NCBI GenBank assembly: GCA_040218735.1
Contig: JAVJQW010000008.1
Span: forward strand, 447,147-511,146
Reading direction: 5' to 3'
Origin: Deltaproteobacteria bacterium
GTDB taxonomy: Bacteria; Myxococcota; Kuafuiibacteriia; Kuafuiibacteriales; Kuafuiibacteriaceae
Length of the DNA stretch: 64,000 nt
Below the pieces are notes generated by a model, which made no database searches, had not been told where the DNA came from, and saw nothing but the letters and a program-made list of their open reading frames with translations. Positions 49,977 to 60,736 of this stretch are shown here, in pieces. Both the position numbers and the translations under genes were made by a program. Position 1 is the first letter of the stretch. The number at the start of each line of letters is the position of its first letter.

Positions 49977-49989
49977 CGCGCGCCTGCTC

Positions 49990-50541
49990 TCAGATGTCGA
50001 TCCACGAGATGCCGTCGCACCCCGGTGGGTCGACCTCGTCGAACGGCTCGCAGACACGACGCACGCAGTCGAGGCCCGCCGCGCAGACGTCCGTCTCGTC
50101 GACTTCGCGCCCCCCGCACTCCTCGCCGAGCGCCGCCGTGCCGTGCCAGGCGAAGCAGTTGGGGTAGGCTTCGTTGCAGCGCCTCGCCGGGTCCTCCGCG
50201 AGCGCGACGAAGGCGTCGTAACAACTCTGGTCCCAGGACAGCGAGAGGAGCTGCGCCTCGAAGCCCGCCGAGCCGAGGAACCGTCCGATCTCACTTCGGC
50301 ACTCAGCCTCGTCGGCCACCGGGACGCTGCACCCGCACGCGAAGACCCGCTCGCAGTGCAGTCGAGCGAAGCGCTCGTTCGGGGTCTCGGCCACCTCGGG
50401 GCCGGCGTCGCGTGGGGGCGCCGTGGTCCCGGCGTCGCGGCGGAGGACCACGCCGCCGCCGTCCGGTGATGCGCCGAGGTCGCGTTCGGAGCCGCACGCG
50501 AACGAGAGGGCCAGCGGGAGGAAGAGCAGCCGCCTTTTCAT
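49990..50541 (-). CDS. Small Cys-rich lipoprotein
   Basis: Lipobox LALSFAC; DAG linker; CERVFACGC and GEEC...CAAGLDC...C modules. Confidence 0.75.
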   Translation of the reverse strand: MKRRLLFLPLALSFACGSERDLGASPDGGGVVLRRDAGTTAPPRDAGPEVAETPNERFARLHCERVFACGCSVPVADEAECRSEIGRFLGSAGFEAQLLSLSWDQSCYDAFVALAEDPARRCNEAYPNCFAWHGTAALGEECGGREVDETDVCAAGLDCVRRVCEPFDEVDPPGCDGISWIDI

Positions 50542-51161
50542 TCCGTGAGCCCCGTGCGCACCGCGTAGTGGACGAGCCCCGGCACGCTGTCGAGGCCGAG
50601 CTTCGACTTGATGCGCTGGATGTACGTGCTCACCGTGCTGGGGCTGAGGTGGAGGCTCGACGCGACGCAGGACGGACGTCGCCCGTTACCGAGCATGACG
50701 AGGATGTCGTGTTCGCGGTTGCTCAGGCTCTCGTGCGGATCACGGTCGGCGCGGTCGAGGTCCTCGACGAGCAGCTCCGCGAGCCGTGGTGAGACGAAGC
50801 GCCCGCCCCGGAGCACGGTGTCGATCGCTTCGAGCAGAACGGTGGCCGGCTGGTCCTTCGTGAGGTAGCCGTCGGCACCCGCGCGGAGCATGCGCACCGC
50901 GCCGCGATCCTCGGGCCGGCCGGCGAGTACGAGGGCGCGGACGTGGCGGCGGCGGAGGTCGGTGAGGAGCTGAAGGACGCTGCCGTCCGCGTGGCTGCGC
51001 TCCACGATGACGAGGTCGGCGGTGGTGACCTCGGCGAGCGTGACGCCGTCCTTCGGGGGATCGACGACGTGGAGATCGGGGCGGGCGCGGGCGAGGAGGC
51101 TGGCGATCCCCTCGCGCACCATGCGGTGGGGATCCAACAGGAGGATGCGTTTCGGTCTCAC
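50538..51161 (-). CDS. NarL/GacA-type response regulator with atypical receiver
   Basis: GADGYLTK; LSNREHDIL...LHLSPSTVSTY..RIKSKLG HTH. The phosphoacceptor position reads DLVIVE. Confidence 0.88.
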   Translation of the reverse strand: MRPKRILLLDPHRMVREGIASLLARARPDLHVVDPPKDGVTLAEVTTADLVIVERSHADGSVLQLLTDLRRRHVRALVLAGRPEDRGAVRMLRAGADGYLTKDQPATVLLEAIDTVLRGGRFVSPRLAELLVEDLDRADRDPHESLSNREHDILVMLGNGRRPSCVASSLHLSPSTVSTYIQRIKSKLGLDSVPGLVHYAVRTGLTE

Positions 51162-51224
51162 TCCAGGTCCCTACGAAGAACCTCGACGGATCCCATCAAA
51201 GAAAATTGCGGTACGCTGGATGCG

Positions 51225-58500: not shown

Positions 58501-60614
58501 ATCTGGGCGAGGCCGGCGCCGTCGCCCGCGGTCACCGTCGGGAGCTCACCGTGGAAGCGTTCGAGATCCTCGATGCACGCGGCGAGGAGCTCGGCGGCGT
58601 CGAGGCGCGCGGGGTCGCCGGGCGAGCGTTCGAAGTTCATCGCATACTCGACCCCGGCGGAGCGAGCGCCGGCCTCGCATTCGAGCTCGCCCGAGAGCGG
58701 CAGGGCCTCGTTCGAGAGGGTCGAGGCGTGGAGTGAGTCGAGCGTGGTGGCCGAAACTGGTTCGTAGCAGAGGTAGCGCTGAGCGCACTCGGACGCCGCG
58801 CGCGGTGTGACGCCGTTGAACCGGCAGGCGTGGGTGACGCGGAAGTCGACGAACTGAGGCTCACGCCAGCTTCGCTCCCAGAAGTACGGCGAAGACCACG
58901 CTTGGGTGGGAGCGATGAGCGTTCCGACGCGTTGGAAGGTCGGGTCGATCATCATTGGCTCGGGCGCGCACCCGGTTTCGATCGCGAGCGCCGTGCAGTG
59001 GTCGATCGGGTGTACCGACGCGGGGCGCTCGACGTAGCGACGGGGTCGACCGACTTCGTCGATGTAAAAGTAGTGCGCGGGGAGCGCGATCTCGAAGCCA
59101 CACGCGACGACACCGAGCTGAGCGTGTCGGTCCATCGCCTGGCCGAACGCGGGGGTGAGATCGCGGAAGTAGGTCCAGCCCTCCGGGGTCGGCGGGACGC
59201 CGAAGTCGTCGGCGAACGCCCGGACCGTCTCGAAGTGTGCCTGCACCGGAGGCACGGTGGGATCCAGGAGCTCGTTGTAGCGAATGCCCATGGGTGCGGT
59301 GTTCACTGGGAGCGCCGGATAGCGGTTCCAAGTGACCTCGGCCGCCATGACGTGTGTCGCGGCCTCGAGGGAGTGTTCGCAGAGGTAGACGCTGGCGTGG
59401 TCGTCGCGGTGTCGTTCGAGGAGCTCGGCCGGATCGGAGCTGGCGTCGAAGCGCGCGGTGACGGTCGACGCAATCAGCGTCTCCCATCGGTTGGGTTCAC
59501 GGGTGCGCTCGGGGTCGAGCGTGAGCGCTTGGTTGGCGTTCGGTGCTCCGATCGAGCCGATGTCGGTCCCGTTGGCTTCGAGCACGACGCGCCAGATCGT
59601 CGCCGCCTCCACGCCCGGCGCGAGGCCTTGGAGCTCCGAGCGTACGGTGAAGCCTACGAAGTCACGCCCGACCTGAACGTCACTCACGACGAAGTGCGCG
59701 AGGAGCTCCAGGTCCGACGCCGGTGCGGAGCGGATGGCGATGACGTCGGGGAGCGTGGCGCTCCAGCCGGCCTGGTCCTCGGTGAGCGTCCCCACGACCC
59801 GTCGGCGGGGGAGGAGCGCGCGGGCGGGGTCCTCGAGGACGAGCCGGTAGGTGCCTCCGACCGACGCCGAGACCGAGGCCGAGATGGGGTAGCCGTCCGT
59901 CGCCTCATCGGGCCACGGCGCGGCGCCGGCCGAGGTCGCGACGCGACGGGCGGAGCCGACGTAGGTCTTCGGGCCGGGGTCGTCGACCGCCCCTTCGGCG
60001 GGGGCGATCACCAGCGCTGCCGTCGCCATGGCCGCGCCGTGGAAGACCCGCAGCGTGTCGAGCGGTGCGGTGGCGTCGGCGGTGAGCTGCACATCGACGA
60101 CATGTTCGACGCCGGCGGGGACGCGGTCGACGCGGCACACGCTCGCGAAGGTGTCGCCGGCCGCACAGCGGACCTGCGCGCCGGCGGGTGCGACGACGCG
60201 CACCGCGCCGACGTCGACTTCACCGGCGCGGAGCCGAACCATGCCGGGCCCGTCGGGCGCGAGCGCGACGACGATCGGATCGAGCGTGAGGTTCGTGGTC
60301 GCGACGACGGGCGGCGTGGACAGCGCGGGATATTCGGGGTCGCGGCAGACGCCGAACAGATCACATACCGAGTCGCCTTCGCAGGCGTCGTCCGATCGGC
60401 AAGTGGTGACGCACGCGCCGAGCGCGCAGTGCGCGCCACACGGGCAGTCGTCGTGGGCGCGGCACGCGTGGGCGGTGTCGAGGCGCGCGACGTCGCGGAC
60501 GCACTGGATCGCGTGCGGGGTGCGACTGACCTCGGGGGGCTTGCCGGGGCAGCCGGCGACGCCGCCGGCCACGATCAGGAGAGCGAGGGCGTGGATCGGG
60601 GATGAGCTGGACAT
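55512..60614 (-). CDS. Giant lipoprotein (1700 aa) with Cys-rich N-terminus and Tc-toxin-A-like C-terminal region
   Basis: Lipobox GGVAGC; long helices around an Ala/Gly-rich hairpin; YLAVRAVEYEYQ; C-terminal GRGVYGDYALFLP...DLDAVDDILLRLDYVS. The CDS is firm; the TcA likeness is recognised by eye. Confidence 0.7.
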   Translation of the reverse strand: MSSSSPIHALALLIVAGGVAGCPGKPPEVSRTPHAIQCVRDVARLDTAHACRAHDDCPCGAHCALGACVTTCRSDDACEGDSVCDLFGVCRDPEYPALSTPPVVATTNLTLDPIVVALAPDGPGMVRLRAGEVDVGAVRVVAPAGAQVRCAAGDTFASVCRVDRVPAGVEHVVDVQLTADATAPLDTLRVFHGAAMATAALVIAPAEGAVDDPGPKTYVGSARRVATSAGAAPWPDEATDGYPISASVSASVGGTYRLVLEDPARALLPRRRVVGTLTEDQAGWSATLPDVIAIRSAPASDLELLAHFVVSDVQVGRDFVGFTVRSELQGLAPGVEAATIWRVVLEANGTDIGSIGAPNANQALTLDPERTREPNRWETLIASTVTARFDASSDPAELLERHRDDHASVYLCEHSLEAATHVMAAEVTWNRYPALPVNTAPMGIRYNELLDPTVPPVQAHFETVRAFADDFGVPPTPEGWTYFRDLTPAFGQAMDRHAQLGVVACGFEIALPAHYFYIDEVGRPRRYVERPASVHPIDHCTALAIETGCAPEPMMIDPTFQRVGTLIAPTQAWSSPYFWERSWREPQFVDFRVTHACRFNGVTPRAASECAQRYLCYEPVSATTLDSLHASTLSNEALPLSGELECEAGARSAGVEYAMNFERSPGDPARLDAAELLAACIEDLERFHGELPTVTAGDGAGLAQILRSEGCIDAARHVRALAAGARSHDTGYTSVAGWALHHRLAFQWLEVHQFIASETHERMKLRRALGDSIVVPRERPVGEILDLSLEGWALLLHPRFVASLSALPADVLAAPDYRARLPGVIVLDQPFHTQRVGLPVLMLETLRAQLALARARLEDAYFTQDLDPGLDDVAHALAYAAAVRPLARAWTERARPENPSWLADWERALAELDTTEAELVRLVHRAMAGTNPLGIADEDLPLYFLGDPDAASARFSAISDYLIGDGRTDAGWAPRAVNRATAALGDARAAWTDQRDRALRVASDAAQHRARLNETRRGYGERILELCGDMGRGVDALSVLDEDDVYGASCWSDTTRPECAYEEVELDATNVDEADVKYQLCYAGQLVKRFGLAASYGSGLDAHLALAAEQLNLDVRIVDDAFEWAGGVYPLQVLRGLRLSVPPSAETDPDVYHDARATCAARYPDARTRLPSRDDLPASPLADPSCYRGAIGGVALELRSAASQVEIARAELADLGDRYDIAMRSCMRLKAGNAERAEAIRLHTSTMQTLAAVKLGADQAANVAKGVKSAASPFNAVFSFGASAASAAVETGANAISIGMQFAMDEATRNHERALGALDARTAEDRCFIDAEMHLVGARTATLRIQKALQDAARSSLEKRDLEATVERLIREGRAAVSREVGSMIRPLAGERWIDERLDTLESTMRIARRATYLAVRAVEYEYQSSLALRADVIAAQRPDQLSAVLDELASTAATRRIEGNAPRELLVVLSLRDHLLQLEDRSGAPDGELNLSATQRFRLLLADERFAHRDDDGTYLGQRIPFTIGPLSALGLGDASGIPIFATQDCAERLWSVNASILGEDALRGGGSFTRLNLLKRNTFYSQWCTDDHPDPMQVASVYPSKNLFKDPIVGGESQATTSGGDGESIARVQAYTNVGRSALEAEAYAQGATAELAGRGVYGDYALFLPAELMSRNGGDGLDLDAVDDILLRLDYVSVARR

Positions 60615-60688
60615 GCATGGACCTCCGCGCGCCCCGGGGTCGAAGGAGCGCGTGAAGAACATCGTTCCATATAAGTTATTGAAATTGT

Positions 60689-60706
60689 TGTAGAATTAAT
60701 TCTACA
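60689..60706. promoter_or_regulatory. Perfect 18-bp palindrome TGTAGAATTAATTCTACA in an AT-rich divergent intergenic patch
   Basis: Exactly self-complementary; about 75 bp upstream of the giant lipoprotein ATG. Confidence 0.7.
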
Positions 60707-60736
60707 CGGGAGGTCGCCGGAGTCGCCGGGGGGCGA

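Follow-up and report, generated by a model that had tools for sequence, protein, structure and literature searches.

Architecture of the locus

The 64,000-nucleotide stretch analysed here (the window; contig JAVJQW010000008.1, assembly GCA_040218735.1, Myxococcota) carries, between a moxR gene and a gene for a CoxE-like von Willebrand factor A (VWA) protein, a block of six genes whose largest member encodes a giant lipoprotein with a predicted fold resembling TcA, the A subunit of Tc toxins. The open reading frame (ORF) list and the family scans agree on the six genes between moxR (49149-49976, forward strand) and the VWA_CoxE gene (60737-62050, forward strand), as the initial annotation had described for two same-strand flanks and the six genes named between them. 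Its further description of a self-contained block stands for the gene content and not for a single unit, since the genes form three transcription units over both strands: the giant with a large Cys-rich lipoprotein (reverse), an extracytoplasmic function (ECF) sigma factor with a kinase (forward, 4-nt overlap) and a NarL-type regulator with a small Cys-rich lipoprotein (reverse, 4-nt overlap). The giant probably starts at the ATG at 60614, in agreement with a database record of 1700 residues; residue numbers below count from the start of the ORF at 60662. Its parts are as follows:

55512-60614, reverse: giant putative TcA-like lipoprotein, 1700 residues from the ATG at 60614, in a 1716-codon ORF from 60662
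60549-60614, reverse: signal peptide II with lipobox Cys38, read from the sequence
Preceding the Ig-like domain, reverse: Cys-rich module, residues 54-110, identified by conservation
59568-60299, reverse: predicted immunoglobulin (Ig)-like domain of PapD/ASH/MSP type (residues 122-222), then a predicted beta-barrel (225-365), both from the model
58767-59480, reverse: hypervariable region, residues 395-632, 16% mean identity and 22-269 residues long in homologues
57828-58745, reverse: predicted helical-repeat region, residues 640-945, a candidate shell, to which the TcA shell is unmatched
55524-57818, reverse: predicted TcA-like part, residues 949-1713, from fold superposition on TcdA1 2010-2516

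Predicted structure of the giant lipoprotein

The giant was covered by two AlphaFold2 models, of residues 640-1716 (predicted local distance difference test, pLDDT, 83.1) and residues 38-960 (pLDDT 82.8), in which the domains follow one another as Cys-rich module, Ig-like domain, beta-barrel, hypervariable region, helical repeat, long hairpin and beta domain. The TcA-like part is predicted to consist of a long helical hairpin, with a Cys-rich insert (1043-1202) and a low-charge, Ala/Gly-rich tip (1258-1328), and to end in a beta domain (1478-1713) resembling the TcB-binding domain. Averaged over the family, the tip (1280-1319) has a hydropathy of 0.37-0.63 and 13-17% charged residues, in a part of the model where pLDDT is below 50.

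Fold comparisons of the C-terminal model converged on TcA. All 21 listed of the 22 Foldseek matches at E ≤ 0.001 were TcA, the remaining one being a further chain of a listed entry, and in a search independent of Foldseek covering 48,161 chains TcA came out first and second (Z 12.3 and 12.2), ahead of a chain at Z 10.6. On re-alignment the top 18 matches were TcA, colinear from the start of the channel to the C-terminus. Residues 949-1713 superposed on TcdA1 2010-2516 with Z 14.0 (root-mean-square deviation, rmsd, 4.1; 270 residues aligned) and the beta domain by itself on TcdA1 2327-2516 with Z 8.2 (rmsd 3.6; 151 aligned), the best low-rmsd TcA matches beginning at about TcdA1 2005-2010. A profile-profile comparison of giant and TcA was weak (E 0.0096) and in the same register as the fold match. 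Thirteen of 30 Atlas matches fell in PF18276 (TcA_TcB_BD) clusters, the best at 0.93, and the other 17 were unnamed, mostly from Verrucomicrobiota. The three best Atlas look-alikes (query 55515-57965), unnamed clusters of 690-805 residues and again mostly from Verrucomicrobiota, possibly form a shorter stand-alone TcA-like family. In the N-terminal half, the Ig-like domain gave a VIA Z of about 10 at an rmsd of about 2 Å and the beta-barrel Z 9.3; no TcA chain was among the fold matches listed for the N-terminal model (38-960), although such a list does not prove that TcA-like parts are missing.

According to the available text of PMC6795518, TcA works through three conserved parts, the channel, the linker and the TcB-binding domain, and its architecture further comprises an alpha-helical shell with a knot, a neuraminidase-like domain and a stretched form of the linker. 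The predicted model of the giant has the channel hairpin and the C-terminal TcB-binding domain of this fold, and shares them with Photorhabdus TcdA1 and TcdA4, Xenorhabdus XptA1/2, Yersinia TcaA-TcaB and YenA, together with variable domains N-terminal to the channel and, judged from family-mean composition, a putatively apolar tip. In contrast to TcA, the giant has a lipoprotein signal, is shorter (about 1700 versus about 2500 residues), is Cys-rich throughout with a 160-residue channel insert, lacks Pfam TcA domains and tcB/tcC neighbours, and belongs to Myxococcota and Bradymonadia hosts. The surface effector proposed in the initial annotation is thus upheld as a putative TcA-like envelope protein, on the strength of a predicted channel and TcB-binding fold carried by a lipoprotein.

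Distribution of the giant family

Among 8000 candidates scored, 84 were close homologues of the giant, of which 14 were left out of a 70-sequence alignment; in a library clustered at 50% identity the family had 868 representatives at E ≤ 0.001 and 496 at 1e-30. Many Cys residues are conserved, and conservation across the family peaks in the funnel, the TcB-binding-like region (54% identity). Lipobox-like patterns were present in 38 of 51 full-length homologues, most of the misses looking like miscalled starts. In a genome scan with the 70-sequence alignment, 117 of 168 stretches were confirmed; 80 of these loci were returned, leaving out 37, and all locus counts below refer to the 80; flanks extended up to 10 kb per side, with at least 5 kb on both sides at 27 loci and enough to show the layout of the window at 29. 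These loci came from 67 genomes, ten of which gave two to five giant loci, and for 77 of the 80 loci the title of the record refers to Myxococcota, Bradymonadia or delta-proteobacterial taxa. The cultured hosts are Lujinxingia litoralis, L. vulgaris and Persicimonas caeni. N-terminal Big_9/cadherin domains occur in two homologues, L049:6173-12712 and a protein from P. caeni (P0314, 3055 residues), the latter also with FG-GAP repeats. No description of the family was found in the literature, in mostly open texts without supplements; the supplementary tables of Myxococcota genome papers could list it.

Neighbourhoods of giant homologues

The remaining genes and features of the block and its flanks are:

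49149-49976, forward: MoxR-family AAA+ ATPase (left flank), Pfam AAA/AAA_5, 56-60% identical to annotated MoxR family ATPases
49990-50541, reverse: small Cys-rich lipoprotein A, 183 residues, 7% Cys, no family, overlapping the regulator's stop by 4 nt
50538-51161, reverse: NarL/LuxR-type response regulator with an atypical receiver, Pfam Response_reg and GerE, aligned to three regulators beside other giants
51219-51773, forward: sigma factor of the ECF43 type, its start placed approximately, diverging from the regulator, TIGR02999 at 191.7 bits (cut-off 126.15), with the region-2.2 Thr motif kept
51770-54265, forward: Hanks-type Ser/Thr kinase, 831 residues, PknS-like layout, Pfam Pkinase and tetratricopeptide repeats (TPR), with catalytic motifs
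54269-55432, reverse: large Cys-rich lipoprotein B, 387 residues, 11% Cys, Dickkopf_N/DUF7107-like repeats (weak Pfam DUF7107/EB matches below the cut-off)
60689-60706, no strand: perfect 18-bp palindrome that borders the 50 nt of the window richest in AT; a candidate operator in the gap from which the giant and vwa diverge
60737-62050, forward: VWA_CoxE protein (right flank), homologous from about codon 23, the lone upstream start being a TTG that adds about 20 residues

Neighbouring genes at the 80 loci were predicted with a simple gene caller, and four context labels were set by hand. Homologues of the block's MoxR, VWA and lipoprotein A were found at none of these loci, and a weak homologue of lipoprotein B at one. 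Lipoprotein B is encoded 79 nt after the giant, in the same orientation, and its Atlas neighbours are common Dickkopf-like families of the Myxococcota. Cys-rich neighbours accompanied 12 of the 80 giants, near the background of 34 in 624 genes, so that Cys-rich lipoproteins were rejected as dedicated accessories and the proposal that they are disulfide-rich parts of a module is not supported. Regulators stood beside the giant at 25 loci, as an ECF43 sigma factor with a kinase (5), a histidine kinase with a NarL-type regulator (5) or LuxR/AraC types (15), and ECF43 and NarL occurred together at none. Of the two-layer regulation suggested previously, the regulator classes therefore recur and their combination does not; nor is there a fixed six-gene module, given these counts for ECF43 with NarL and for lipoproteins A and B. 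Apart from the giant, the block is made up, mosaic-like, of interchangeable accessory genes.

The commonest neighbour, at 19 of the 80 loci and absent from the block itself, is a Gly-rich lipoprotein that combines Cys-rich or MopE repeats with a long Gly-rich tail, which we take to be PGRS-like; most lack Pfam matches beyond the MopE repeats. Examples are L050:7860-9884, L067:5144-9841 and L046:3743-16637, with up to four in L046, where two giants also stand in tandem (L046:9893-21193), interleaved with these lipoproteins. Judged from gene context, the Gly-rich lipoproteins are the best candidate for the giant's true partner.

Regulatory genes and a candidate operator

The sigma factor and kinase have the hallmarks of ECF43 systems, namely a TIGR02999-type sigma factor in which a region-2.2 Thr replaces the acidic motif and an adjacent transmembrane Hanks kinase with a TPR sensor, and no anti-sigma gene; such systems are further characterised by activation through phosphorylation. 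The kinase has one transmembrane helix (about 359-377) and C-terminal TPRs, and is coupled to the sigma gene by the 4-nt overlap. In Xanthomonas citri EcfK/PknS and Vibrio parahaemolyticus EcfP, a TIGR02999 sigma factor with the region-2.2 Thr likewise directly precedes a kinase, with no anti-sigma gene and a putative weapon alongside, and PknS has 833 residues against 831 for the kinase-transmembrane-TPR protein here (available text of PMC13147305). The X. citri pair activates an anti-amoeba type VI secretion system, as described in the accessible parts of PMC13147305 and PMC7826278. The two arrangements differ in that EcfK/PknS adjoins that secretion system, whereas the neighbour here is the putative TcA-like lipoprotein; the sigma motif here is HTTE, versus QTTA in the ECF43 consensus. 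A second ECF sigma factor, unrelated to the first, is encoded at 48564-49139 on the forward strand, separated from moxR by 9 nt; no obvious anti-sigma gene adjoins it.

The NarL-type regulator departs from canonical two-component systems, with Glu in the column of the phospho-accepting Asp and an altered acidic pocket, and Pfam identified no histidine kinase among the six block genes. As Glu replaces the phospho-Asp and the block has no cognate kinase, the regulator may be phosphorylation-independent. The palindrome precedes the probable start of the giant by 75 nt and is one of two perfect palindromes with arms of at least 9 bp in the 64 kb; it presumably resembles GacA/UvrY boxes. The motif recurs upstream of the giant's unit at two other loci, exactly in L043 and with one mismatch in L078, but with up to two mismatches it occurs at 2 of 5 NarL loci versus 6 of 50 others, which is not significant (p = 0.15), and no upstream motif was enriched family-wide in 50 giant leader regions compared with 332 controls.

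Possible function of the giant

With moderate confidence, the giant is read as distantly related to the A subunit of Tc toxins but acting alone and converted into a lipoprotein: an envelope-tethered membrane piercer used on touched cells. The features on which this reading is built are an export signal with a lipobox, a predicted channel hairpin and funnel, a variable, adhesin-like N-terminal half and no TcB or TcC nearby; from these we infer that the giant oligomerises, is displayed at the surface, pierces membranes of prey or grazers and is controlled by the regulators next to it. It would carry a lipid anchor and be exposed on the envelope or on vesicles. Copies would assemble in the manner of TcA, which is a homopentamer, with their hairpins making up a channel enclosed by a helical shell. 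The hypervariable region, a candidate target-recognition part, would recognise the touched cell, and the apolar tip would be driven into its membrane to form a pore or conduit serving predation, competition or anti-protist defence. TcA can by itself perforate membranes and is modestly toxic, according to the available text of PMC11435725. The gene would travel with exchangeable accessories: an ECF43 sigma factor that would be switched on by the adjacent TPR kinase, an atypical NarL regulator, for which the palindrome upstream is a possible site of action, and, as further local accessories, two Cys-rich lipoproteins of generic type. The giant appears to work like the channel half of TcA, yet it lacks both the sequence match and the tcB/tcC neighbours that mark a Tc toxin.

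Several observations weigh against this reading. Neither the giant nor 23 of its homologues has a TcA Pfam domain, the giant has no match in Pfam, NCBIfam or PHROGs, and sequence searches of the PDB with phmmer and hmmsearch returned nothing for it. The hhalign probability for giant and TcA was 4%, a TcA profile run on 70 family members scored at best 4.8 bits versus 1.6 in reversed controls, and the remaining sequence routes to TcA (plasmid tblastn and the family profile against SepA) were non-significant. Whole-model TM-scores were 0.14-0.18 with 10-14% identity, and the TcA score (Z 12.3) was only 1.7 above that of a designed helical repeat, Z values below about 13 being potentially generic for helical proteins. 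In addition to the low pLDDT (<50) of the giant's tip, the TcA shell, neuraminidase-like domain and long linker are unmatched, which leaves the driving force for insertion unaccounted for. Regarding control, the regulators beside other giants are no closer to those of the block than generic members of their families (ECF 44-49%, kinase 28-40%, regulator 30-33%), and four of the five ECF43 cases belong to one clade.

The resemblance to TcA also raises the question of a cargo. The giant could be an orphan A subunit that serves as translocator for a toxin of several parts, the container for the cargo (TcB/TcC-like, another YD-shell or a beta-propeller) being encoded elsewhere in the genome, which we consider improbable. 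Consistent with such a role, the TcB-binding-like domain is the region that the family conserves best, beta-propeller proteins (RCC1, FG-GAP) adjoin some giants, orphan tcC genes exist (available text of PMC7861908), and lipoprotein YD-shell toxins are common in Myxococcota, according to the available part of PMC13018210. However, for 42 large neighbours and 102 of the 104 adjacent genes, the other two being fragments and left aside, the five best Pfam matches of each protein included none of the RHS, SpvB and TcdB families, and SepA, SepB and SepC gave a single tblastn match at E = 0.2 and no phmmer match in the window and the 80 loci with their flanks, SepB and SepC finding nothing there. 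The dbTC screen sought tcB and tcC genes within 10 kb, as set out in the accessible text of PMC7861908; this arrangement was found neither in the window nor at the 80 loci, 27 of which have flanks of at least 5 kb on both sides. Cargo fused to the giant was also rejected, on the weak evidence of one longer homologue (P. caeni, 3055 residues) that adds adhesin domains only and no RHS family. Alternatively, the giant may belong to a non-offensive envelope machine, its hairpin crossing the periplasm or bridging cells. It would then act as a conduit for secretion, the stalk of an adhesin or a component of outer-membrane exchange, perhaps with the Gly-rich lipoproteins. The lipid anchor, the Ig and adhesin domains, the many conserved Cys residues, the Gly-rich neighbours at 19 of 80 loci and the lack of any recurrent small downstream gene of immunity type beside giants all fit this account, but the best fold match is specifically TcA and not a secretion or adhesin structure, the expansion of paralogues with a hypervariable region fits conflict systems, and the block has no Gly-rich lipoprotein; we regard it as no likelier than an orphan subunit.

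Among the closest known systems are the bacterial teneurin-like proteins of Myxococcota (available text of PMC13018210), which are likewise large, lipoprotein-anchored, adhesin-bearing conflict proteins and are enriched in this phylum; they are YD-shell containers with a C-terminal toxin, whereas the giant lacks YD repeats and resembles the channel subunit. More tentatively, and with less confidence than the reading of the giant itself, predatory Myxococcota and Bradymonadia might possess an undescribed polymorphic class of lipid-anchored, TcA-derived injectors that dispense with the TcB/TcC container, remain tethered and pierce prey or grazer membranes on contact, with paralogues that differ in a swappable recognition region and a conserved funnel to which cargo of a novel type, for example the Gly-rich lipoproteins, may bind.

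Tc toxins are soluble three-part syringes, mostly of gamma- and beta-proteobacteria. Surveys of them go through TcC (available text of PMC7861908) and would therefore miss the giant's family. If the reading is correct, a lipid-anchored A subunit without B and C neighbours, in hundreds of clusters from predatory-type bacteria, would place the Tc channel in a different lifestyle and point to a possible contact weapon in lineages about whose means of killing little has been learned. As cultured hosts exist, the role of the giant can be tested.

The moxR and vwa flanks and the origin of the block

The flanking genes supply both members of a MoxR-VWA pair, an AAA+ MoxR and its VWA partner, which we take to be of the PA2707-like subfamily. 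Linkage was judged from records of a plasmid collection, all from Proteobacteria. A vwa orthologue lay 34-695 bp downstream of a 56-60% identical MoxR, on the same strand, in 9 of 13 such records, which bears out the earlier statement that the two are usually neighbours; the other four MoxR records (Azospirillum) had no vwa orthologue at E 1e-30, and 5 of 14 vwa records (Paracoccus) had no such moxR among the matches listed (40 of 62). Both genes, their order and their strand are the same here as in Acinetobacter, Aeromonas, Ralstonia and Pseudorhodobacter records, but the distance is 10.8 kb and the start of vwa is atypical. ACG codons stand in vwa (60737-60810) where its closest homologues have Met, and the TTG start puts 26 residues, the added ones unconserved, ahead of a conserved Phe that the homologues reach after a median of 7 residues, about 10% having at least 20 (111 of 119 homologues fitting the pattern). 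The gene may thus have lost its native start. One 651-residue VWA homologue (P0105) matches VWA twice, pointing to a tandem duplication or an assembly artefact.

Because moxR and vwa adjoin in most of these plasmid-collection records, an insertion between them is plausible, and we consider it fairly probable. The patchwork would have been placed there by a lineage-specific insertion or rearrangement, with MoxR and VWA as bystanders. The initial annotation had noted a 7/8 similarity between 8-mers at the two ends; both are present (49983-49990 and 60808-60815), but 48% of 500 random 15 x 100-nt pairs contain a match of at least 7/8, and the right copy covers G-H-L-L-F codons common to the two closest homologues of the vwa product, which begin two or three residues before this motif. 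Lying within conserved vwa codons, the right 8-mer cannot be the block boundary, and a target-site duplication was ruled out on both counts. Four nucleotides at the moxR stop (49975) recur at 60799, and their register would suit an earlier overlap of the moxR stop with the vwa start; this microhomology was set aside as a junction and kept as a lead only, being one of three 4-mers in the search zone and at chance level.

It is also conceivable, though unlikely, that no insertion took place, moxR and vwa being unlinked in this lineage or split by shuffling or misassembly, and the six genes ordinary resident accessory genes. In line with this, scans of the six genes with Pfam, NCBIfam and PHROGs revealed no integrase, in keeping with the initial annotation, and no transposase or other mobility gene; no terminal repeat was among the repeats listed, and searches found no tRNA, Rfam match or sigma-70 promoter. 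Foreign composition was rejected, since median GC content at synonymous third codon positions (GC3s) was 0.887 in the six genes versus 0.909 in the 44 other genes of the window (p = 0.15) and no codon anomaly was seen, as was a phage origin, for which the sole match had 4% coverage and lay in the kinase region only. Records with an unlinked moxR or an unlinked vwa exist (the four Azospirillum and five Paracoccus cases), and the giant's cluster, like that of its paralogue, reaches an 11.5-Mb contig, the VWA cluster only 1.2 Mb, which different start calling or assembly could explain. Against these points, two partners 10.8 kb apart on the same strand and in the usual order are more easily explained by insertion, vwa has no normal start codon at the position from which its nearest homologues run, as expected of a disturbed 5' end, and the ORFs are intact at both junctions. 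A quite different account, in which the giant is a chaperone client of MoxR-VWA and the entire stretch works as a single locus, is very improbable. MoxR-VWA pairs remodel dedicated targets, according to the available text of PMC13036017, the pair lies near the giant here, and one further locus (L077) has a MoxR system upstream of its giant. Homologues of the block's MoxR or VWA were, however, found at none of the 80 loci, 29 of which have flanks long enough to show this layout, the L077 system is of the unrelated bpMoxR ternary type and on the other strand, and the giant is exported while MoxR and VWA have no signal peptide; the chaperone role raised in the initial annotation is accordingly not retained, and the moxR-vwa pair is best treated as a bystander. 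The L077 system (L077:275-6291) is a MoxR-vWA-beta-propeller ternary system (bpMoxR, bpX5, bpX6) encoded on the strand opposite to the giant.

Other loci in the window

Elsewhere in the window, four genes at 27779-32546 (forward strand), including a PapD_N chaperone, a DUF4402 protein and an uncharacterised 832-residue protein, look like a chaperone-usher-type pilus locus, and a gene at 17396-20044 (reverse strand) encodes FG-GAP repeats fused to a D-Ala-D-Ala carboxypeptidase (Peptidase_S11) domain. The stretch 39770-45683 is presumably a sulfate assimilation cluster, whose translations we take to be PAPS-reductase-like and TauE-like proteins, an APS kinase, a siroheme synthase and a sulfite reductase.

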